Position numbers and translations under genes: made by a program
Shown here: in pieces, positions 1 through 9,906 of the stretch
Numbering within the stretch: the first letter of the stretch is position 1
Layout of the letters: each line of letters opens with the position of its first letter
Origin: Escherichia coli
GTDB lineage: Bacteria; Pseudomonadota; Gammaproteobacteria; Enterobacterales; Enterobacteriaceae
Length of the DNA stretch: 64,000 nt
Reading direction: 5' to 3' (one strand)
Assembly: GCF_003334765.1 (NCBI RefSeq)
Contig: NZ_QOWT01000003.1
Notes under the pieces: generated by a model
Told to the model about the DNA's origin: nothing
The model's database searches: none
What the model saw: the letters and a program-made list of their open reading frames with translations, nothing else

Positions 1-364
1 TTAATGCTTCAATGGTGTTGTAGGTGGTATAAACCGCGCCTGCTTCTGAAGGTTTAATGTGGAAGCTGACTGATACTGTCATTTGTGCCGGTTGCTGGTC
101 GCGGCTGTAGGCCTGTAATCCCTGATAGACCACAGCCTGATTACGCGTGGAAATTTTCTCCACGCTTTCCATAAACGGGATCTTAAAACCCAGACCCGGC
201 TCGGCAACTTTTACGATTTTTCCGTAGCGCAGCAAAATGCCGCGTTCACCTTCATTAACGGTGTAATACGAGAGAAATGGCAGCACAACCACGGCAAGCA
301 CGCCAATGGCGATAGCAAGAGATTTTTGTGGGCGAAATGAGGTTAATGAAACAGGTGCTTTCAT
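1..364 (-). CDS. SPFH/band-7 (HflC/HflK-like) membrane protein, N-terminal part only; gene continues beyond the left edge of the window
   Basis: Open minus-strand frame from ATG (complement of 362..364) to the window edge, not in the supplied ORF track because it has no stop in the window. Translation begins MKAPVSLTSFRPQKSLAIAIGVLAVVVLPFLSYYTVNEGERGILLRYGKIVKV..., i.e. one N-terminal hydrophobic helix followed by the EGERG-type SPFH motif. AGGAAG Shine-Dalgarno sits about 7 nt upstream of the ATG. Confidence 0.6.
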   Translation of the reverse strand, partial: MKAPVSLTSFRPQKSLAIAIGVLAVVVLPFLSYYTVNEGERGILLRYGKIVKVAEPGLGFKIPFMESVEKISTRNQAVVYQGLQAYSRDQQPAQMTVSVSFHIKPSEAGAVYTTYNTIEAL

Positions 365-580
365 ATGAATCTTCCTTGAGTAAAGTGGGGAATATGTCAC
401 ATGAGGTAAGGAGAAAATAGCCGACAGGTGAGAATTCAGAATCTATAAAGGGGTATAGCGAAAAAACGTTGCATTAAAAAAGTATGTTTTCGGATATTCA
501 ATAAATAAATGGCGATATGCATCACAAATACAATAACAAACAAAATGTTGATTTTGTGATAAACATAACAAATACAAAGT

Positions 581-609
581 TGACTTTAAAAATATCAATT
601 TCATATTGT
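581..609 (+). promoter_or_regulatory. Candidate sigma70 promoter upstream of cmtB (TTGACT, ~18 nt spacer, TATTGT)
   Basis: Hexamer match read by eye in the AT-rich spacer; no experimental support. Confidence 0.25.
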
Positions 610-740
610 TGTTATTTAAGGTTTTATTATTTTGGTTTATGGGGTTTTTCTTCTCGCGTACCCAATTGCTTTCATTAAACCGCACGAGTATTTTATTTTT
701 ACCGCCGGACGGTACCCTAAAAATAAAATAAGGATAATTT

Positions 741-1184
741 ATGCGGCTTAGTGATTATTTTCCAGAATCATCAATCTCAGTTATACATTCAGCAAAAGAT
801 TGGCAGGAAGCTATCGATTTCTCGATGGCATCATTGCTGGATAAAAACTATATCAGCGAGAATTACATTCAGGCAATTAAAGATTCCACCATTAACAATG
901 GCCCTTATTATATTCTCGCGCCAGGTGTGGCAATGCCTCATGCGCGACCGGAATGTGGGGCGCTTAAAACCGGGATGTCTTTGACGTTACTTAAACAAGG
1001 CGTTTATTTTCCGGGGAATGACGAACCGATTAAATTACTCATCGGGCTTTCTGCTGCCGATGCCGATTCGCACATTGGCGCTATTCAGGCGTTAAGTGAA
1101 TTACTGTGCGAAGAAGAAATACTCGAACAACTCTTAACAGCATCATCAGAAAAACAATTAGCGGACATTATCAGCTGCGGATAA
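741..1184 (+). CDS. cmtB: PTS mannitol-type enzyme IIA component (cryptic)
   Basis: 147 aa ORF with the EIIA(Mtl)-type active-site region (...GVAMPHARPE...); immediately followed by an EIICB gene; RBS AAGGATA upstream. Confidence 0.9.
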   Translation: MRLSDYFPESSISVIHSAKDWQEAIDFSMASLLDKNYISENYIQAIKDSTINNGPYYILAPGVAMPHARPECGALKTGMSLTLLKQGVYFPGNDEPIKLLIGLSAADADSHIGAIQALSELLCEEEILEQLLTASSEKQLADIISCG

Positions 1185-1211
1185 TGACTCTCTCCTCTAC
1201 AGGATAATATT

Positions 1212-2600
1212 ATGGAAAACAAGTCTGCTCGTGCAAAGGTCCAGGCTTTTGGGGGCTTTTTGACGGCAATGGTCATCCCCAATATCGGTGCTTTTATTGC
1301 CTGGGGTTTTATTACTGCATTATTTATTCCTACTGGTTGGCTGCCGAATGAACATTTCGCCAAAATTGTCGGCCCGATGATTACCTATTTATTGCCCGTG
1401 ATGATTGGTTCTACCGGTGGTCATCTGGTCGGCGGTAAACGCGGCGCGGTCATGGGCGGAATTGGTACGATTGGTGTGATCGTCGGCGCAGAGATCCCGA
1501 TGTTCCTTGGCTCAATGATTATGGGGCCGCTCGGTGGGCTGGTCATAAAATATGTCGATAAGGCACTGGAAAAACGCATACCTGCTGGTTTTGAGATGGT
1601 TATCAATAACTTCTCATTAGGTATCGCGGGGATGCTCCTTTGTCTGCTGGGTTTTGAAGTGATCGGCCCGGCGGTGTTAATTGCCAATACTTTCGTCAAA
1701 GAGTGTATTGAGGCGCTGGTACATGCGGGTTATCTGCCTCTGCTGTCAGTCATCAATGAACCGGCGAAAGTGCTTTTCCTTAATAATGCGATCGATCAGG
1801 GCGTCTATTATCCGCTGGGAATGCAACAGGCTTCGGTTAACGGTAAATCCATCTTCTTTATGGTGGCCTCTAACCCAGGTCCGGGCCTGGGGCTGCTGCT
1901 GGCGTTTACCTTGTTTGGTAAAGGGATGAGTAAACGTTCTGCGCCCGGGGCGATGATTATTCACTTCCTCGGTGGGATCCACGAACTGTATTTCCCATAT
2001 GTGCTGATGAAGCCGCTGACTATTATTGCCATGATTGCGGGCGGTATGTCTGGCACCTGGATGTTTAACTTACTGGACGGTGGTCTGGTGGCTGGCCCAA
2101 GTCCGGGGTCTATCTTTGCTTACCTGGCGCTGACGCCGAAAGGTTCGTTCCTGGCGACAATTGCCGGTGTTACGGTAGGTACCCTGGTGTCCTTTGCTAT
2201 CACTTCGCTGATACTGAAGATGGAAAAAACGGTGGAAACGGAGAGCGAAGATGAGTTTGCTCAGTCAGCCAATGCGGTTAAGGCGATGAAACAAGAGGGT
2301 GCATTCTCGTTAAGCCGGGTTAAGCGTATCGCCTTTGTTTGCGATGCGGGGATGGGCTCCAGCGCGATGGGCGCAACCACCTTCCGTAAACGTCTGGAAA
2401 AAGCGGGGCTGGCAATTGAAGTAAAACATTACGCGATAGAAAACGTGCCTGCGGATGCGGATATCGTCGTTACTCATGCCAGTCTGGAAGGGCGCGTGAA
2501 ACGTGTGACGGATAAATCACTGATATTGATTAATAACTATATTGGCGATCCAAAACTCGACACTTTATTTAATCAATTAACCGCAGAACATAAACACTGA
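1212..2600 (+). CDS. cmtA: PTS mannitol-type enzyme IICB component (cryptic)
   Basis: 462 aa, polytopic hydrophobic N-terminal IIC domain plus C-terminal IIB-like domain (...FVCDAGMGSSAMGA...). Confidence 0.9.
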   Translation: MENKSARAKVQAFGGFLTAMVIPNIGAFIAWGFITALFIPTGWLPNEHFAKIVGPMITYLLPVMIGSTGGHLVGGKRGAVMGGIGTIGVIVGAEIPMFLGSMIMGPLGGLVIKYVDKALEKRIPAGFEMVINNFSLGIAGMLLCLLGFEVIGPAVLIANTFVKECIEALVHAGYLPLLSVINEPAKVLFLNNAIDQGVYYPLGMQQASVNGKSIFFMVASNPGPGLGLLLAFTLFGKGMSKRSAPGAMIIHFLGGIHELYFPYVLMKPLTIIAMIAGGMSGTWMFNLLDGGLVAGPSPGSIFAYLALTPKGSFLATIAGVTVGTLVSFAITSLILKMEKTVETESEDEFAQSANAVKAMKQEGAFSLSRVKRIAFVCDAGMGSSAMGATTFRKRLEKAGLAIEVKHYAIENVPADADIVVTHASLEGRVKRVTDKSLILINNYIGDPKLDTLFNQLTAEHKH

Positions 2601-2614
2601 TTACAGAGGTAAAA

Positions 2615-3892
2615 ATGAAAACCAAAGTTGCTGCTATTTATGGCAAGCGGGATGTCCGTCTGCGCGAATTTGAATTGCCCGAAATTACCGATAATGAACT
2701 GTTAGTGAGTGTAATTTCTGACAGCGTCTGTTTATCGACCTGGAAAGCGGCGTTACTCGGTAGTGAACATAAACGCGTACCCGACGATTTAGAAAATCAT
2801 CCGGTCATTACCGGGCATGAATGTGCCGGGGTTATTGTTGAAGTGGGTAAAAATCTCACCGACAAATATAAAAAAGGCCAGCGTTTTGTATTGCAACCGG
2901 CGATGGGGTTACCAAGCGGATATTCAGCGGGCTACAGCTACGAATATTTTGGCGGTAACGCCACCTATATGATTATTCCTGAAATAGCCATTAACCTGGG
3001 CTGCGTATTACCGTATCACGGCTCTTATTTTGCTGCGGCGTCGCTGGCAGAGCCTATGTGCTGCATTATTGGCGCTTATCATGCCAATTATCACACCACG
3101 CAATATGTTTATGAGCATCGCATGGGCGTTAAACCTGGCGGCAATATTGCGCTGCTGGCATGTGCTGGCCCGATGGGCATTGGCGCTATCGATTATGCCA
3201 TTAACGGCGGCATACAACCGTCGCGGGTGGTGGTGGTCGATATCGACGACAAACGCCTGGCCCAGGTACAGAAGCTGCTGCCGGTGGAGCTGGCGGCCAG
3301 TAAAGGCATTGAGCTGGTGTATGTGAATACCAAAGGGATGAGCGATCCGGTACAGAAGCTGCGGGCGCTGACAGGAGATGTCGGGTTCGATGACATTTTT
3401 GTTTATGCGGCGGTGCCTGCTGTCGTTGAGATGGCTGACGAATTACTGGCGGAAGATGGCTGCCTGAACTTCTTTGCCGGGCCGACGGATAAAAACTTCA
3501 AAGTGCCGTTTAATTTCTACAACGTCCATTACAACAGCACGCACGTCGTCGGTACATCCGGCGGTTCAACGGACGACATGAAAGAGGCGATTACCCTTAG
3601 CGCCACGGGACAGTTACAGCCGTCGTTTATGGTGACCCATATTGGTGGCCTGGATGCGGTGCCAGAAACCGTGCTCAATCTGCCGGATATCCCAGGCGGT
3701 AAAAAACTCATTTATAACGGCGTGACCATGCCGCTCACTGCCATTGCCGATTTTGCCGAAAAAGGCAAAACCGATCCGCTGTTTAAAGAGCTGGCGCGGC
3801 TGGTTGAGGAAACGCACGGCATCTGGAATGAGCAGGCCGAGAAATATCTGCTGGCGCAATTTGGCGTTGATATCGGGGAGGCCGCACAATGA
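2615..3892 (+). CDS. yggP: Zn-dependent medium-chain dehydrogenase/reductase (polyol dehydrogenase-like)
   Basis: 425 aa ORF with MDR/alcohol dehydrogenase motifs (GHECAG..., Rossmann GxGxxG region); 4-bp stop/start overlap with next gene. Confidence 0.85.
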   Translation: MKTKVAAIYGKRDVRLREFELPEITDNELLVSVISDSVCLSTWKAALLGSEHKRVPDDLENHPVITGHECAGVIVEVGKNLTDKYKKGQRFVLQPAMGLPSGYSAGYSYEYFGGNATYMIIPEIAINLGCVLPYHGSYFAAASLAEPMCCIIGAYHANYHTTQYVYEHRMGVKPGGNIALLACAGPMGIGAIDYAINGGIQPSRVVVVDIDDKRLAQVQKLLPVELAASKGIELVYVNTKGMSDPVQKLRALTGDVGFDDIFVYAAVPAVVEMADELLAEDGCLNFFAGPTDKNFKVPFNFYNVHYNSTHVVGTSGGSTDDMKEAITLSATGQLQPSFMVTHIGGLDAVPETVLNLPDIPGGKKLIYNGVTMPLTAIADFAEKGKTDPLFKELARLVEETHGIWNEQAEKYLLAQFGVDIGEAAQ

Positions 3893-4854
3893 TGTCCCTG
3901 GCGTGGCCATTATTTCGCGTTACGGAACAGGCAGCGTTGGCTGCCTGGCCGCAAACCGGATGTGGCGACAAAAATAAAATTGATGGCCTGGCGGTCACCG
4001 CGATGCGCCAGGCATTAAACGATGTCGCTTTTCGTGGGCGAGTGGTTATCGGCGAGGGAGAGATTGACCATGCGCCGATGCTGTGGATTGGCGAAGAGGT
4101 GGGCAAAGGCGATGGGCCAGAAGTCGATATCGCGGTTGACCCGATTGAAGGCACGCGGATGGTGGCGATGGGGCAGAGCAATGCGCTGGCGGTGATGGCC
4201 TTCGCCCCACGAGGCAGCCTGCTACACGCGCCCGATATGTATATGAAAAAGCTGGTTGTTAATCGACTGGCGGCGGGCGCGATTGATCTGTCTTTGCCTC
4301 TGGCGGACAACTTGCGTAACGTGGCGCGGGCGTTAGGTAAACCGCTGGACAAGCTGCGCATGGTTACGCTTGATAAACCGCGCCTGAGTGCCGCAATTGA
4401 GGAAGCAACACAGCTGGGCGTGAAGGTTTTTGCCCTGCCGGATGGCGATGTCGCCGCCAGCGTGCTGACCTGCTGGCAGGATAATCCTTACGACGTGATG
4501 TACACCATTGGCGGTGCGCCGGAGGGCGTGATTTCTGCCTGTGCCGTTAAAGCATTAGGCGGGGATATGCAGGCCGAGCTGATTGACTTTTGTCAGGCTA
4601 AAGGGGATTACACGGAAAATCGGCAGATTGCAGAGCAGGAGCGCAAGCGTTGCAAGGCAATGGGCGTTGACGTTAACCGTGTGTATTCGGTCGATGAACT
4701 GGTGAGGGGGAACGATATCCTCTTTAGCGCTACGGGCGTGACGGGCGGCGAGCTGGTGAACGGTATCCAACAGACGGCGAATGGGGTGCGGACGCAGACA
4801 TTACTGATCGGCGGCGCGGACCAAACGTGTAATATAATAGACTCCCTGCATTGA
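3889..4854 (+). CDS. yggF: Class II (GlpX-type) fructose-1,6-bisphosphatase paralog
   Basis: 321 aa ORF, GlpX-family sequence; start ATG overlaps yggP stop (ATGA). Confidence 0.85.
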   Translation: MMSLAWPLFRVTEQAALAAWPQTGCGDKNKIDGLAVTAMRQALNDVAFRGRVVIGEGEIDHAPMLWIGEEVGKGDGPEVDIAVDPIEGTRMVAMGQSNALAVMAFAPRGSLLHAPDMYMKKLVVNRLAAGAIDLSLPLADNLRNVARALGKPLDKLRMVTLDKPRLSAAIEEATQLGVKVFALPDGDVAASVLTCWQDNPYDVMYTIGGAPEGVISACAVKALGGDMQAELIDFCQAKGDYTENRQIAEQERKRCKAMGVDVNRVYSVDELVRGNDILFSATGVTGGELVNGIQQTANGVRTQTLLIGGADQTCNIIDSLH

Positions 4855-4875
4855 TGGTGATCTATCGGAAGACCA

Positions 4876-5385
4876 ATGGCGACGCTGACAGAAGATGATG
4901 TGCTTGAGCAACTGGAGGCACAGGACAATTTATTTTCATTTATGAAAACTGCGCATACCATTTTGCTCCAGGGGATACGCCAGTTTCTGCCGTCGCTGTT
5001 TGTCGATAACGATGAAGAGATCGTCGAATATGCAGTGAAGCCGTTACTCGCCCAAAGCGGCCCGCTTGACGATATTGATGTTGCACTGCGTTTGATTTAT
5101 GCGTTGGGGAAAATGGATAAATGGTTGTACGCCGATATCACGCATTTTTCCCAGTTCTGGCATTACCTGAACGAACAGGATGAAACGCCCGGATTTGCCG
5201 ATGACATGACCTGGGATTTTATCAGCAACGTCAATAGCATAACCTGCAATGCGACGCTCTATGACGCATTGAAAGCGATGAAGTTCGCCGATTTCGCCGT
5301 CTGGTCAGAGGCGCGTTTTAGCGGAATGGTCAAAACGGCGCTGACGCTGGCAGTAACGACCACCTTAAAGGAATTAACGCCGTGA
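4876..5385 (+). CDS. yggD: MtlR-like domain protein (YggD; annotated in E. coli as putative fumarase E)
   Basis: 169 aa ORF; position and sequence match YggD of the E. coli ygg cluster. Confidence 0.8.
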   Translation: MATLTEDDVLEQLEAQDNLFSFMKTAHTILLQGIRQFLPSLFVDNDEEIVEYAVKPLLAQSGPLDDIDVALRLIYALGKMDKWLYADITHFSQFWHYLNEQDETPGFADDMTWDFISNVNSITCNATLYDALKAMKFADFAVWSEARFSGMVKTALTLAVTTTLKELTP

Positions 5386-6095
5386 AAATTGAATTAACGG
5401 TGAATGGGCTGAAGATACAGGCACAGTACCAGAACGAAGAGATTGAAAATGTACATAAACCGTTGCTGCACATGCTGGCGGCCTTACAGACGGTAAATCC
5501 GCAGCGGCGTACGGTGGTTTTTCTTTGCGCTCCGCCGGGGACGGGTAAATCAACCCTAACCACCTTCTGGGAATATCTCGCGCAACAAGACCCGGAACTG
5601 CCCGCTATTCAGACGCTCCCGATGGATGGTTTTCACCATTACAATAGCTGGCTGGATGCGCATCAATTGCGCCCCTTCAAAGGCGCACCAGAGACATTTG
5701 ACGTTGCGAAACTGACGGAAAATCTGCGCCAGGTCGTGGAAGGGGATTGTACGTGGCCGCAGTACGATCGACAAAAGCATGATCCTGTTGAAGATGCGTT
5801 GCACGTTACCGCACCACTCGTCATCGTCGAAGGAAACTGGTTGTTACTGGATGATGAAAAGTGGCTGGAGTTGGCATCTTTCTGCGATTTTTCTATTTTT
5901 ATTCATGCACCTGCTCAAATTCTGCGGGAGCGCTTGATTAGTCGTAAAATTGCGGGAGGATTAACGCGGCAAGTAGCCGAAGCATTTTATGCCCGCACCG
6001 ATGGCCCCAATGTCGAGCGTGTGCTGATGAATAGCCGTCAGGCCAATCTGATAGTAGAGATGACTGAAGAAGGCCGGTATCACTTCACAAGCTGA
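5382..6095 (+). CDS. yggC: P-loop nucleoside/pantothenate-kinase-like protein
   Basis: 237 aa ORF with Walker A (APPGTGKST); 4-bp overlap with yggD. Confidence 0.8.
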   Translation: MKIELTVNGLKIQAQYQNEEIENVHKPLLHMLAALQTVNPQRRTVVFLCAPPGTGKSTLTTFWEYLAQQDPELPAIQTLPMDGFHHYNSWLDAHQLRPFKGAPETFDVAKLTENLRQVVEGDCTWPQYDRQKHDPVEDALHVTAPLVIVEGNWLLLDDEKWLELASFCDFSIFIHAPAQILRERLISRKIAGGLTRQVAEAFYARTDGPNVERVLMNSRQANLIVEMTEEGRYHFTS

Positions 6096-6379
6096 CAATT
6101 TATTCCAGTTATTGTAGGGTTATTATTACGCCAGCCTGGAATAAAGCTTCCCACAAAAGGGGATAAAAGTGTGATGTGAGTCAGATAAATGTCTTCTTCG
6201 GCTGGACAAACATTCCTTTTATTCCACGTTTCGCTTATCCTAGCTGAAGCGTTTCAGTCGATTAAATGTTCGACAATTAACCAATCAGTCGCAGTTTGCG
6301 ACAGGTAAGGTTTCCCCGGACGATTTGCTGGATTACTCTGTCTGGCAAATTTGCTCAGGGAAAACCTTGCAGGAGATCT

Positions 6380-7399
6380 ATGACCGTACGCGTAGCGATA
6401 AATGGCTTCGGTCGCATCGGGCGTAATGTGGTTCGTGCTTTGTATGAATCCGGACGTCGGGCGGAAATTACCGTGGTGGCAATCAACGAACTGGCGGATG
6501 CTGCGGGCATGGCGCATTTGTTGAAATATGACACCAGCCATGGCCGTTTTGCATGGGAAGTACGACAGGAACGCGATCAACTTTTTGTTGGTGATGACGC
6601 CATCCGCGTATTGCATGAACGTTCACTGCAATCGCTCCCCTGGCGTGAACTTGGCGTTGATGTAGTCCTCGACTGCACCGGCGTATATGGCTCCCGCGAA
6701 CATGGCGAAGCGCATATTGCCGCCGGGGCTAAAAAAGTGCTCTTTTCACATCCTGGCAGTAACGATCTCGATGCGACCGTTGTTTACGGCGTCAATCAGG
6801 ATCAACTTCGTGCGGAACACCGCATCGTTTCTAACGCTTCCTGTACCACGAATTGCATAATTCCCGTCATCAAATTGTTAGATGATGCGTACGGTATTGA
6901 GTCCGGCACTGTGACCACAATTCACTCCGCCATGCACGATCAACAGGTTATTGATGCATACCATCCTGACCTGCGTCGCACCCGGGCAGCCAGCCAGTCG
7001 ATCATTCCGGTCGATACTAAACTGGCCGCCGGTATCACACGATTTTTTCCGCAATTTAACGATCGCTTTGAAGCGATTGCGGTACGTGTGCCAACCATAA
7101 ATGTGACGGCAATCGATTTAAGCGTGACGGTGAAGAAACCTGTAAAAGCCAATGAAGTCAACCTGTTGCTGCAAAAAGCAGCACAAGGTGCATTTCATGG
7201 TATAGTTGACTATACGGAATTGCCGTTGGTCTCTGTAGATTTTAACCACGATCCGCATAGTGCCATTGTCGATGGTACTCAAACCCGGGTCAGTGGCGCA
7301 CACCTGATCAAAACGTTGGTCTGGTGCGATAACGAATGGGGCTTTGCTAACCGAATGCTCGACACGACGTTAGCTATGGCTACTGTTGCTTTCAGGTAA
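6380..7399 (+). CDS. epd: D-erythrose-4-phosphate dehydrogenase
   Basis: [20 protein letters not shown]... GAPDH-family N-terminus. The track ORF starts upstream at 6296, but the conserved start is the ATG at 6380. Confidence 0.9.
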
Positions 7400-7448
7400 G
7401 ACGCAAGCAGCGTCTGCAAAACTTTTAGAATCAACGAGAGGATTCACC

Positions 7449-8612
7449 ATGTCTGTAATTAAGATGACCGATCTGGATCTTGCTGGGAAACGTGTATTTA
7501 TCCGTGCGGATCTGAACGTACCAGTAAAAGACGGGAAAGTAACCAGCGATGCGCGTATCCGTGCTTCTCTGCCGACCATCGAACTGGCCCTGAAACAAGG
7601 CGCAAAAGTGATGGTAACTTCCCACCTGGGTCGTCCTACCGAAGGCGAGTACAACGAAGAATTCTCTCTGCTGCCGGTTGTTAACTACCTGAAAGACAAA
7701 CTGTCTAACCCGGTTCGTCTGGTTAAAGATTACCTCGACGGCGTTGACGTTGCTGAAGGTGAACTGGTTGTTCTGGAAAACGTTCGCTTCAACAAAGGCG
7801 AGAAGAAAGACGACGAAACCCTGTCCAAAAAATACGCTGCACTGTGTGACGTGTTCGTAATGGACGCATTCGGTACTGCTCACCGCGCGCAGGCTTCTAC
7901 TCACGGTATCGGTAAATTCGCTGACGTTGCGTGCGCAGGCCCGCTGCTGGCAGCTGAACTGGACGCGCTGGGTAAAGCACTGAAAGAACCTGCTCGCCCG
8001 ATGGTGGCTATCGTTGGTGGTTCTAAAGTATCTACCAAACTGACCGTTCTGGATTCCCTGTCTAAAATCGCTGACCAGCTGATTGTTGGCGGTGGTATCG
8101 CTAACACCTTTATCGCGGCACAAGGCCACGATGTGGGTAAATCCCTGTACGAAGCTGACCTGGTTGACGAAGCAAAACGTCTGCTGACCACCTGCAACAT
8201 CCCGGTTCCGTCTGATGTTCGTGTAGCAACTGAGTTCTCTGAAACTGCACCGGCTACCCTGAAATCTGTTAACGATGTGAAAGCTGACGAGCAGATCCTG
8301 GATATCGGTGATGCTTCCGCTCAGGAACTGGCTGAAATCCTGAAGAATGCGAAAACCATTCTGTGGAACGGTCCGGTTGGCGTGTTCGAATTCCCGAACT
8401 TCCGCAAAGGTACTGAAATCGTGGCTAACGCTATCGCAGACAGCGAAGCGTTCTCCATCGCTGGCGGCGGCGACACTCTGGCAGCAATCGACCTGTTCGG
8501 CATTGCTGACAAAATCTCCTACATCTCCACTGGCGGCGGCGCATTCCTCGAATTCGTGGAAGGTAAAGTACTGCCTGCAGTAGCGATGCTCGAAGAGCGC
8601 GCTAAGAAGTAA
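7449..8612 (+). CDS. pgk: Phosphoglycerate kinase
   Basis: [26 protein letters not shown]... canonical Pgk; highly biased codon usage typical of a glycolytic gene. Confidence 0.95.
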
Positions 8613-8620
8613 AAAATCAC

Positions 8621-8647
8621 AGGGCAGGGAAACCTGCCCTTGTTTCA
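8621..8647 (+). terminator. Intrinsic terminator after pgk
   Basis: 8-bp perfect stem AGGGCAGG/CCTGCCCT with GAAA loop, followed by a T-rich run. Confidence 0.6.
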
Positions 8648-8714
8648 GCGCGCTTTTAAAGCACGCACTTTTTCATACTCTAAATAATTCGAGTTGCAGG
8701 AAGGCGACAAGAGA

Positions 8715-8800
8715 GTGAATCCCCAGGAGCTTACATAAGTAAGTGACTGGGGTGAGCGAACGCAGACGCAGCACATGCAACTTGAAGTATGACGAGTATA
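8715..8800. repeat. ERIC/IRU intergenic repeat (partial copy)
   Basis: Contains GTGAATCCCCAGGAGCTTACAT immediately followed by AAGTAAGTGACTGGGGTGAGCG, which I recognise as the two core ERIC segments; no right-hand inverted terminus seen. Confidence 0.8.
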
Positions 8801-8826
8801 AGGCCCGACGATACAGGACAAGAGAC

Positions 8827-9906
8827 ATGTCTAAGATTTTTGATTTCGTAAAACCTGGCGTAATCACTGGTGATGACGTACAGAAAGTTTTCCAGGTAGC
8901 AAAAGAAAACAACTTCGCACTGCCAGCAGTAAACTGCGTCGGTACTGACTCCATCAACGCCGTGCTGGAAACCGCTGCTAAAGTTAAAGCGCCGGTTATC
9001 GTTCAGTTCTCCAACGGTGGTGCTTCCTTTATCGCTGGTAAAGGCGTGAAATCTGACGTTCCGCAGGGTGCTGCTATCCTGGGCGCGATCTCTGGTGCGC
9101 ATCACGTTCATCAGATGGCTGAACATTATGGTGTTCCGGTTATCCTGCATACCGACCACTGCGCGAAGAAACTGCTGCCGTGGATCGACGGTCTGCTGGA
9201 CGCGGGTGAGAAACACTTCGCTGCTACCGGTAAGCCGCTGTTCTCTTCTCACATGATCGACCTGTCTGAAGAATCTCTGCAAGAGAACATCGAAATCTGC
9301 TCTAAATACCTGGAGCGCATGTCCAAAATCGGCATGACTCTGGAAATCGAACTGGGTTGCACCGGTGGTGAAGAAGACGGCGTGGACAACAGCCACATGG
9401 ACGCTTCTGCACTGTACACCCAGCCGGAAGACGTTGATTACGCATACACCGAGCTGAGCAAAATCAGCCCGCGTTTCACCATCGCAGCGTCCTTCGGTAA
9501 CGTACACGGTGTTTACAAGCCGGGTAACGTGGTTCTGACTCCGACCATCCTGCGTGATTCTCAGGAATATGTTTCTAAGAAACACAACCTGCCGCACAAC
9601 AGCCTGAACTTCGTATTCCACGGTGGTTCCGGTTCTACTGCTCAGGAAATCAAAGACTCCGTAAGCTACGGCGTAGTAAAAATGAACATCGATACCGATA
9701 CCCAATGGGCAACCTGGGAAGGCGTTCTGAACTACTACAAAGCGAACGAAGCTTATCTGCAGGGTCAGCTGGGTAACCCGAAAGGCGAAGATCAGCCGAA
9801 CAAGAAATACTACGATCCGCGCGTATGGCTGCGTGCCGGTCAGACTTCGATGATCGCTCGTCTGGAGAAAGCATTCCAGGAACTGAACGCGATCGACGTT
9901 CTGTAA
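8827..9906 (+). CDS. fbaA: Fructose-bisphosphate aldolase class II
   Basis: MSKIFDFVKPGVITGDDVQKVF... canonical FbaA, 359 aa; the track ORF begins upstream, conserved start at 8827. Confidence 0.95.
   Translation: MSKIFDFVKPGVITGDDVQKVFQVAKENNFALPAVNCVGTDSINAVLETAAKVKAPVIVQFSNGGASFIAGKGVKSDVPQGAAILGAISGAHHVHQMAEHYGVPVILHTDHCAKKLLPWIDGLLDAGEKHFAATGKPLFSSHMIDLSEESLQENIEICSKYLERMSKIGMTLEIELGCTGGEEDGVDNSHMDASALYTQPEDVDYAYTELSKISPRFTIAASFGNVHGVYKPGNVVLTPTILRDSQEYVSKKHNLPHNSLNFVFHGGSGSTAQEIKDSVSYGVVKMNIDTDTQWATWEGVLNYYKANEAYLQGQLGNPKGEDQPNKKYYDPRVWLRAGQTSMIARLEKAFQELNAIDVL

Follow-up and report, generated by a model that had tools for sequence, protein, structure and literature searches.

The cmt locus

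The cmtBA-yggPFDC locus lies near the start of a 64,000-nucleotide stretch of Escherichia coli DNA (contig NZ_QOWT01000003.1 of assembly GCF_003334765.1), the whole of which is referred to here as the window. Its six genes encode a phosphotransferase system (PTS) transporter of the mannitol family, a dehydrogenase, a paralogue of the class II fructose-1,6-bisphosphatases (FBPases), a protein of the MtlR family and a kinase. The locus is long known and already annotated, and its function is unsolved. The operon has been called cryptic since 1993, and among the core sugar-transport operons in E. coli it belongs to the few without a known substrate or pathway. Comparative evidence from 79 loci supports a variant polyol pathway joined to what may be a second CRP-docking repressor, a mechanism not described for cmt in the literature searched. 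The operon can tentatively be read as a conserved catabolic unit for a PTS-transported sugar alcohol with a regulator of its own; with pathway and regulation taken together, this reading is possible and falls just short of probable. The genes are as follows.

741-1184, + strand: cmtB, PTS enzyme IIA (EIIA), 147 aa; NF007358 equivalog match of 323 bits, cut-off 192
1212-2600, + strand: cmtA, PTS EIICB of the mannitol family, 462 aa; matches to TIGR00851 and NF011663
2615-3892, + strand: yggP, zinc dehydrogenase of the medium-chain dehydrogenase/reductase (MDR) superfamily, SorE homologue, 425 aa; Pfam ADH_N and ADH_zinc_N
3889-4854, + strand: yggF, class II FBPase, GlpX paralogue, 321 aa; TIGR00330 equivalog match of 584 bits, cut-off 259
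4876-5385, + strand: yggD (fumE), MtlR-family protein, 169 aa; PF05068 over residues 5-167, E = 1.8e-52
5382-6095, + strand: yggC, P-loop kinase of the PRK / uridine kinase / PanK superfamily, 237 aa; NF006742 match of 504 bits, cut-off 402

The initial annotation had placed six genes at 741-6095, with two pairs overlapping by 4 bp. The same coordinates follow from the list of open reading frames (ORFs) and from the RefSeq record for an identical E. coli genome. The overlaps are ATGA at 3889-3892 (yggP/yggF) and GTGA at 5382-5385 (yggD/yggC), and the intergenic distances from cmtB to yggC are 27, 14, -4, 21 and -4 bp. Domain assignments also agree with the order that had been read from the sequence, in which the IIA gene stands ahead of the IICB gene and is followed by the dehydrogenase, the class II FBPase paralogue, the MtlR-family protein and the kinase. 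The layout in K-12 is identical to that in the window strain, and several complete E. coli genomes match the window's first 8 kb at 100% identity. The operon is flanked in E. coli by tktA on one side and by epd-pgk-fbaA on the other. Of 5426 complete genomes of the species, 5384 contain at least 80% of these 8 kb, which cover the operon and its flanks. The locus had been called an island; the genes do occupy different chromosomal places in other genera, but they are core in E. coli, so the word is a loose one.

All six ORFs are intact in the window strain and in K-12, and the differences between the two strains are mostly synonymous; cmtA has 32 nucleotide differences and a single amino-acid difference. 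Ratios of nonsynonymous to synonymous substitution (Ka/Ks) against E. albertii are 0.02-0.19 over the six genes, and those against Salmonella and Citrobacter are 0.04-0.10 where Ks can be estimated, with 0.04 for the housekeeping neighbour epd. Orthologues are spread over three phyla. The six are genuine genes under purifying selection and none is a remnant. Two findings had been named in advance as ones that would overturn the description of a linked, functional set, and neither turned up: cmtA is no decayed copy, given its catalytic residues, strong purifying selection and a deletion phenotype in K-12, and terminator prediction finds nothing between the genes that would divide them into separate transcription units. 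Deletion of cmtA raises the minimum inhibitory concentration (MIC) of tobramycin in two K-12 backgrounds (PMC12412646), and a yggF deletion strain grows less well than its parent during glycerol fermentation (PMC8719807).

The transporter

The polyol-type PTS of the initial annotation is borne out by scores of 480 bits against TIGR00851 (cut-off 468.4) and 593.7 bits against NF011663 (cut-off 589), and CmtA shares 52.7% identity with MtlA over its IICB part. His67 of CmtB, the phosphorylated histidine, aligns with His554 of MtlA and is invariant in 63 of 63 relatives. Cys377 of CmtA and the whole IIB loop, CDAGMGSSAMG, are identical to residues 384-394 of MtlA and, like His257 and Glu258 of the GIHE motif, are invariant across relatives. 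The Ka/Ks of cmtA lies between 0.02 and 0.06. CmtB and CmtA are an intact mannitol-family EIIA/EIICB pair. That the gene set is a real unit is seen also in Hafnia, where all six genes lie in unchanged order between menF and menD, and in Vibrionaceae and Clostridia, where the transporter, YggP and YggC stay together.

His195 of MtlA is a residue of known importance from mutagenesis. The corresponding residue of CmtA, at position 196 (window about 1797-1799), is Gln, and CmtA-type transporters carry Gln in 53 cases and His in 11.

The cassette across genomes

Homologues of YggP were collected and their gene context was viewed in four genomes, after which one genome per GTDB species was scanned. 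The ORFs at each locus were clustered and labelled, giving 79 non-redundant loci in three phyla, and YggC was counted as linked when it lay within four genes of YggP on the same strand. By this count YggC is linked to YggP in 58 of the 79 loci, which come from Enterobacterales, Vibrionaceae, Clostridia, Alkalibacterium and Lachnospiraceae. Seven Clostridial loci without YggC carry a 1-phosphofructokinase directly upstream of the YggP homologue, and these kinases score 324-340 bits against the TIGR03828 equivalog (cut-off 292). YggC and FruK are never found together beside YggP (58 against 7 of the 79 loci). The arrangements differ by lineage.

Enterobacterales: IIA, IICB, YggP, YggF, YggD, YggC; in Hafnia between menF and menD, with downstream neighbours that vary by genus
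Rahnella and Budvicia: the Enterobacterales arrangement without YggF; in Rahnella adjoining mtlA-mtlD-mtlR
Vibrionaceae: IIA, IICB, YggP, YggD and YggC, with a PHP-family (YcdX-like) phosphatase instead of YggF
Clostridia and Alkalibacterium: PRD-type regulator, IIA, YggC, IICB, YggP, sometimes with a pyrophosphate-dependent phosphofructokinase (PPi-PFK)
Lachnospiraceae: DeoR regulator, YggC, YggP, class II fructose-1,6-bisphosphate (FBP) aldolase
Seven other Clostridial loci: mtlA-like IICB, PRD regulator, IIA, 1-phosphofructokinase and YggP homologue, sometimes with HPr and enzyme I (EI); no mtlD

The placement in Hafnia and the varied downstream neighbours show that the cassette is a unit independent of tktA and epd, its neighbours in E. 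coli. The enzyme that handles a bisphosphate varies with lineage: a GlpX-type YggF is present in 21 loci, a PHP phosphatase in 14 loci of Vibrionaceae and a PPi-PFK in a few Clostridia. The Lachnospiraceae type occurs in four loci, where the aldolase scores 394 bits against TIGR01859 (cut-off 343). In Rahnella (loci L026 and L027) a cmt-type cassette without yggF stands immediately upstream of a complete mtlA-mtlD-mtlR operon, such that the two systems lie side by side.

The strongest single argument for a pathway comes from the seven Clostridial operons, which look like mannitol operons in which fruK and a yggP homologue replace mtlD. They share with the Gram-positive mtlARFD operon the order of mtlA-like IICB, PRD regulator and IIA, and differ from it in having the two enzyme genes in the place of mtlD.

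The dehydrogenase, kinase and phosphatase

YggP is 46% identical, over its full length and colinearly, to SorE of the canonical Klebsiella sor operon (sorCDFBAME). Its catalytic zinc ligands and nucleotide-binding motif align with those of SorE, and the invariant residues include the zinc ligands C39, H68, E69 and E146, the GPMGxG motif at 185-190 (GPMGIG in YggP) and D209. The invariant Asp209 suggests that the cofactor is NAD rather than NADPH. With only 46% identity and a mannitol-family PTS context without SorD or SorC, YggP is by sequence and context a paralogous subfamily and not an orthologue of SorE.

L-Sorbose-1-phosphate is the C5 epimer of D-fructose-1-phosphate. SorE converts L-sorbose-1-phosphate to D-glucitol-6-phosphate, and loss of SorE blocks sorbose use in E. 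coli (PMC12817954). Given that the two ketose phosphates differ at C5 only, an enzyme with the same facial selectivity would by standard stereochemistry interconvert D-fructose-1-phosphate and D-mannitol-1-phosphate and, by extension, sedoheptulose-1-phosphate and volemitol-1-phosphate. Homology to SorE together with the linkage to 1-phosphofructokinase suggests that YggP acts beside a phosphate ester, and its role would then be that of an alditol-1-phosphate 2-dehydrogenase that yields a ketose-1-phosphate. The YggP proteins that are linked to YggC share an invariant loop, GLPSGYSAGYSYE (residues 98-114, GLPSGYSAGYSYEYFGG; window about 2906-2956). This loop and Gln196 of CmtA are two signatures that set the system apart, and they may mark a different substrate.

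YggC has a Walker A motif, APPGTGKST, in its translation, and its neighbours in PDB sequence searches are 3c8u and pantothenate kinases. The Pfam PRK (phosphoribulokinase / uridine kinase) profile matches the YggC homologues of Aliivibrio and, weakly, that of Lacrimispora. Profile searches gave YggC no PfkB match, and it is not a FruK of the PfkB family. The mutually exclusive occupancy of the position beside YggP nevertheless points to YggC as a ketose-1-phosphate kinase that works like FruK. The SEED group independently predicted that YggC is a "sugar/polyol kinase" (PMC3223725).

YggF reportedly shows activity as an FBPase (Brown et al. 2009, in the form in which it is cited in PMC8719807). 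Relative to LB medium, its mRNA was reported to be 30.8-fold higher when E. coli was fed on Chlamydomonas (PMC10972114). The transcriptome-type mentions of yggP, cmtA and yggF in the literature searched point to no specific inducer.

A proposed pathway

CmtBA would take up a manno-type alditol and release it inside the cell as the alditol-1-phosphate. YggP would oxidise the carbon next to the phosphate to give a ketose-1-phosphate, and YggC would phosphorylate the opposite end to give a ketose-1,ω-bisphosphate, which is FBP if the substrate is a hexitol. The bisphosphate could then enter glycolysis via class II aldolase, and YggF could take off the 1-phosphate to supply a ketose-ω-phosphate (fructose-6-phosphate) for biosynthesis. 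This scheme is proposed because YggP probably acts beside the phosphate, because it has YggC or FruK as a kinase partner and because variable enzymes of 1,6-bisphosphate metabolism join the cluster.

The operon can be set beside several known systems. The E. coli mtlADR operon resembles cmt in its transporter family, in a PF05068 regulator with both docking residues, in activation by CRP and in CRP sites 44 bp apart. It differs in that the IIA of cmt is a separate protein encoded ahead of IICB, and in that cmt lacks MtlD and has instead an MDR dehydrogenase resembling SorE together with a P-loop kinase and a class II FBPase; the product of MtlD is fructose-6-phosphate, whereas YggP would give a ketose-1-phosphate. 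With the sor operons of Klebsiella and E. coli the likeness lies in the dehydrogenase, since SorE and YggP share catalytic residues and both are expected to act beside a C1 phosphate. The sor operon, in contrast to cmt, has a mannose-family PTS, the glucitol-6-phosphate dehydrogenase SorD of the short-chain dehydrogenase/reductase (SDR) type and the SorC regulator, and no kinase or phosphatase; the direction proposed for cmt is oxidative. In fruBKA, as in the proposed cmt route, an operon-encoded kinase takes a ketose-1-phosphate to FBP, and in glpFKX, as in cmt, a class II FBPase is expressed together with a pathway whose entry point lies at FBP or lower. FruK, of the PfkB family, has no sequence relationship to YggC and replaces it only in a subset of Clostridia.

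A number of observations weigh against this pathway, or against extending it to a particular substrate. The FBPase activity of YggF is its sole experimentally established catalytic step, the remaining enzyme steps being inferred, and 18 YggC-linked loci lack a phosphatase, which makes YggF accessory. The YggP loop at 98-114 is missing from SorE and from the FruK-linked homologues, so the two groups of YggP may differ in substrate and the evidence from FruK may not transfer. CmtA-type transporters of all phyla are 56-99% identical to CmtA and 48-55% identical to MtlA, which marks the CmtA group by sequence as an orthogroup apart from MtlA, and the cassette coexists with mtlADR in the same genomes. 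E. coli also owns FruK, inducible by fructose-1-phosphate, and a dedicated kinase besides FruK suggests that the intermediate may not be fructose-1-phosphate. A PcmtA-gfp reporter was screened with 198 Biolog carbon sources, and the text of that work gives no polyol as an inducer, nor mannitol, though it was tested (PMC12412646).

The best activators in that screen were nucleosides, which also acted at 13 other sugar-transporter promoters (PMC12412646). Uridine was the best of all, and YggC belongs to the same superfamily as uridine kinase; the match is probably a coincidence, because uridine also activated the 13 other transporter promoters.

The initial annotation gave the substrate as undefined, and this stands: searches for a substrate or phenotype of cmtA, cmtB, yggP and yggC returned incidental mentions only. 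D-Mannitol was considered as a firm substrate in E. coli and set aside in view of the loop of the YggC-linked YggP, the separate orthogroup of CmtA and the lack of reported induction by mannitol. It fits the chemistry, yet it is disfavoured in E. coli. On the grounds given above, it is plausible that the substrate is absent from the standard arrays. Confidence in any specific substrate is lower than that in the combined explanation.

Alternative readings of the operon

Several other explanations share part of this evidence. One would have CmtBA import a polyol, YggP oxidise the phosphate ester, YggC phosphorylate a free intracellular polyol or sugar, and YggF or the PHP protein serve as a general sugar-phosphate phosphatase that relieves sugar-phosphate stress, with no bisphosphate intermediate. 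This would agree with the SEED prediction for YggC, with FrcK, a relative linked to an ABC fructose transporter that affects fructose uptake yet is not the fructokinase, and with a phosphatase that is dispensable in 18 loci and is drawn from unrelated families. It is unlikely, however, as it leaves unexplained both the 1-phosphofructokinase in the place of YggC in seven loci and the FBP aldolase or PPi-PFK that joins the cluster, and as the loci contain no glycoside hydrolase to free a sugar inside the cell. The operon might otherwise run in the reductive direction, as for sorbose: CmtBA would import a ketose and make a ketose-1-phosphate, YggP would reduce it to a hexitol phosphate and enzymes encoded elsewhere would oxidise this product. 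SorE, the closest characterised relative of YggP, does work reductively, and some databases name YggP homologues "L-sorbose 1-phosphate reductase". The transporter, however, belongs to the mannitol (polyol) family and not to the mannose/sorbose family of sor operons, a second dehydrogenase corresponding to SorD is missing from the cassette, the invariant Asp209 speaks for NAD and not NADPH, and the links to kinase, phosphatase and aldolase go unexplained, all of which makes the reductive direction decidedly improbable. Least credible is a decaying, non-functional duplicate of the mannitol system, which can be dismissed almost entirely. The historical label "cryptic" and the lack of a growth phenotype or substrate in the literature searched would fit decay, but it is contradicted by Ka/Ks values of 0.02-0.19, by intact ORFs and catalytic residues, and by retention of the cassette across phyla and in more than 99% of E. 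coli genomes. The tobramycin MIC of the cmtA deletion, the glycerol growth of the yggF deletion and an active CRP-dependent promoter also speak against decay.

Class II FBPases, PPi-PFK and class II aldolases accept the pair of sedoheptulose bisphosphate and sedoheptulose phosphate. The substrate could be a C7 manno-alditol of the volemitol type, with YggP taking volemitol-1-phosphate to sedoheptulose-1-phosphate and YggC taking this to sedoheptulose-1,7-bisphosphate; YggF could then act as a sedoheptulose bisphosphatase (SBPase) to give sedoheptulose-7-phosphate, or an aldolase could release dihydroxyacetone phosphate (DHAP) and erythrose-4-phosphate. By standard carbohydrate chemistry, reduction of sedoheptulose-1-phosphate in the manner of SorE gives D-glycero-D-manno-heptitol. 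A heptitol would also account for a kinase that is not FruK, for the phosphatase and for the missing polyol inducer among the standard Biolog compounds; the clusters hold exactly class II FBPase, PPi-PFK and class II aldolase as accessory enzymes, and in E. coli the operon sits between tktA and epd-pgk-fbaA. This neighbourhood is not kept, however, with men genes in Hafnia, other downstream genes in Citrobacter and Salmonella and a different setting in Vibrio. Heptitols are rare as nutrients, YggF has been assayed on FBP only, and the case is purely deductive; a heptitol route is likewise decidedly improbable. A fuller version of the whole explanation would make the cassette an undescribed route, combining a new alditol-1-phosphate 2-dehydrogenase, a new class of P-loop ketose-1-phosphate kinase and a rare manno-type alditol (e.g. 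volemitol, via sedoheptulose-1,7-bisphosphate into the pentose-phosphate pathway) with a two-member family of CRP-docking repressors, YggD and MtlR, that cross-talk at two promoters; as a whole it is quite unlikely.

If the proposed oxidation and second phosphorylation do take place, cmt would represent a new entry of sugar alcohols into glycolysis, from alditol-1-phosphate through ketose-1-phosphate to a bisphosphate, and functions could be given to the uncharacterised YggP and YggC families of gut Clostridia, marine vibrios and enterobacteria. Given that cmtA influences aminoglycoside uptake, derepression of the operon would be of some practical value.

The cmtB promoter region

The region upstream of cmtB contains two CRP-like sites followed by promoter-like elements and a conserved leader.

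511-526: GGCGATATGCATCACA, the distal CRP-like site, agreeing with TGTGA-N6-TCACA at 8 of 10 positions
555-570: TGTGATAAACATAACA, the proximal CRP-like site, agreeing with TGTGA-N6-TCACA at 9 of 10 positions
580-609, + strand: promoter-like element P1, -35 TTGACT at 580-585 and -10 CATATT at 602-607 or TATTGT at 604-609, from a consensus scan
666-694, + strand: candidate promoter P2, -35 TTGCTT at 666-671, 17-bp spacer and -10 TATTTT at 689-694, read from the sequence
700-714, + strand: conserved palindrome TACCGCCGGACGGTA in the cmtB leader, just upstream of the ribosome-binding site AGGA at 731-734

The centres of the two CRP-like sites are 44 bp apart, and the distal site aligns with a perfect TGTGATTTTTATCACA in Salmonella. 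The scan with the consensus TGTGA-N6-TCACA reproduced the published mtl spacings of 43, 44, 73 and 44 bp as a positive control. The pair at 511 and 555 is the only one in the window with a spacing of 43-46 bp and at least 16 summed matches; when the intergenic region was shuffled, 0 of 5000 sequences reached the score of the pair and 28 of 5000 reached a laxer threshold. Although the spacer itself diverges in sequence, 25 of the 27 sequences from Enterobacterales keep a spacing of 44-45 bp. The spacing is 44 bp in the window strain, K-12, another E. coli, E. albertii, Salmonella, Citrobacter loci, Superficieibacter, Raoultella, Enterobacter, Phytobacter, Buttiauxella, Providencia and Entomohabitans, and 45 bp in Limnobaculum, Rahnella and Budvicia. 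CRP binding and CRP-dependent reporter activity at the cmtB promoter have been published (PMC3105977; PMC12412646).

An alignment of 19 sequences upstream of cmtB contains the two conserved CRP-like boxes and then conserved promoter-like blocks. The TTGAC block of P1 is conserved across genera. The blocks of P2 are conserved in a multi-genus alignment, though P2 scores under the threshold of the consensus scan, and it lies within the 78 bp (663-740) common to all E. coli strains. At the position of the palindrome, other aligned Enterobacterales have related and partly palindromic sequence. An Rfam search of 300-6500 at E <= 1 gave no match, such that the conserved leader is not a known RNA element. 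A Cra box, expected if fructose-1-phosphate were the signal, was sought in the cmt promoter and none was found.

YggD as a putative CRP-docking repressor

The initial annotation had pointed to a conflict between the MtlR-like domain of YggD and its name, and the conflict is real: the sole Pfam match is PF05068 (MtlR), and the RefSeq name is "fumarase E". A DNA-binding domain is absent from YggD. Among PDB entries, 3c8g matches it nearly identically over the full length, and the MtlR structures 6kcr and 3brj are relatives. MtlR, which also lacks a DNA-binding domain, was described in 2026 to repress by docking on two cAMP-CRP dimers, for which the CRP sites must lie 43-46 bp apart from centre to centre, with an optimum of 44-45 bp (PMC13421365). 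Arg167 and Leu178 of MtlR are essential for docking on CRP, and MtlR is held at the membrane, and so sequestered, by the IIB domain of MtlA in its dephosphorylated form (PMC13421365). According to the same paper, no CRP-regulated operator other than that of mtl has the spacing needed, and YggD and cmt go unmentioned in it.

YggD is 28% identical to MtlR overall. Its Arg147 and Leu158 align with Arg167 and Leu178 of MtlR, and all 43 of the 43 family members aligned have them. YggD occurs in Proteobacteria only, and PRD-type or DeoR regulators are found at the same loci in Firmicutes; such a swap is the pattern expected of a regulator, as for MtlR itself. To judge from these residues, this gene context and the spaced CRP sites, YggD is most likely a CRP-docking repressor of its own operon, and the regulatory part of the explanation is probable. 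YggD would dock onto two cAMP-CRP dimers 44 bp apart upstream of cmtB and thereby repress, and during transport the dephosphorylated IIB domain of CmtA, whose loop is identical to that of MtlA, would sequester YggD to bring about release. MtlR reads only the spacing of the CRP sites, and it may therefore repress the cmtB promoter too, and its cryptic appearance under laboratory conditions could be due to this. The cmt operon would in that case be a second natural target for the docking mechanism described for MtlR.

There is contrary evidence for the repressor as well. Chromatin immunoprecipitation with exonuclease (ChIP-exo) gave no DNA association for YggD. The experiment was done in glucose medium, where cAMP-CRP is low, and the 8×myc tag at the C-terminus stood only some 10-20 residues away from the docking residues; both circumstances weaken the negative result. 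Arg147 and Leu158 could be conserved for structural reasons instead. The CRP pair is not evident by the same scan in Hafnia or in most Vibrionaceae, where 3 of 14 loci (A. fischeri, Photobacterium and A. sifiae) have a pair with weak sites, and the regulatory claim is therefore limited to most Enterobacterales. Finally, fumarase activity has been ascribed to YggD in a high-throughput in vitro metabolomics screen (Sévin 2017, as described in PMC8464067).

If YggD were genuinely a fumarase, FumE, it would have no regulatory role and the operon would be under CRP alone. The activity reported from the screen, as relayed in PMC8464067, led to a name that EcoCyc and RefSeq have adopted, and the lack of DNA binding by ChIP-exo would be as expected. 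Searches of Pfam, NCBIfam and PDB sequences, however, found no fumarase-family match for YggD, which matches the MtlR family only. In Proteobacteria it always lies within the PTS cassette, its place being taken by PRD or DeoR regulators in Firmicutes, and conservation extends to the two residues for docking on CRP and to the CRP pair 44 bp apart. MtlR itself likewise fails to bind DNA alone, and the ChIP-exo conditions were unfavourable. A fumarase without a regulatory function is thus very unlikely. Should YggD prove to be a repressor, the name "fumarase E", which is probably misleading, would be corrected, a regulator being more likely.

Transcript structure and sequence variation around the operon

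Between the genes the scan for intrinsic terminators gave no hit, and downstream of yggC it gave none that has a U-tract. A σ54 site, CTGGCGGCAATATTGCG, lies inside yggP at 3135-3151 in the sense direction, 744 bp upstream of yggF; it is a site reported by ChIP-seq and has one mismatch. This intragenic site could be an internal promoter for separate expression of yggF, yggD and yggC.

The spacer between yggC and epd (6096-6379, 284 bp) is identical to that of K-12 and folds unusually stably in comparison with shuffled sequences (z = -4.95). It holds no canonical terminator, and transcription may run on into epd. The only perfect Cra box found, CTGAAGCGTTTCAG, is in this spacer at 6244-6257.

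On the other side of the operon, positions 1-364 (- strand) hold the 5' part of a prohibitin-family gene that is missing from K-12. This gene and the distal promoter allele occur together in 1826 of 5426 complete E. coli genomes; the remaining genomes share only 663-740 by megablast, and K-12 keeps an equivalent 44-bp CRP pair. Within the species, the cmt regulatory region is thus present in strongly diverged alleles.

Divergence from K-12 steps down over 741-9906, from 1.6-3.4% of nucleotides in cmtB to yggD to 0.1-0.8% in yggC to fbaA. Against E. albertii, Ks is 0.79 for yggC and 0.10 for the adjacent yggD. The step in nucleotide divergence and the contrast in Ks between yggD and yggC suggest recombination breakpoints near the junction of the two genes.

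A different subgroup of YggP homologues, 55-58% identical, was found in eight Clostridial loci (L061, L064, L066, L071, L077-L079 and L081), and no PTS or kinase is present in these clusters. The subgroup was left out of the pathway argument, as it probably belongs to a different, uncharacterised pathway. Its neighbours are an E1/E2/E3 oxo-acid (acetoin-type) dehydrogenase complex, an SDR, a 430-aa PHP-like protein and a DeoR regulator.

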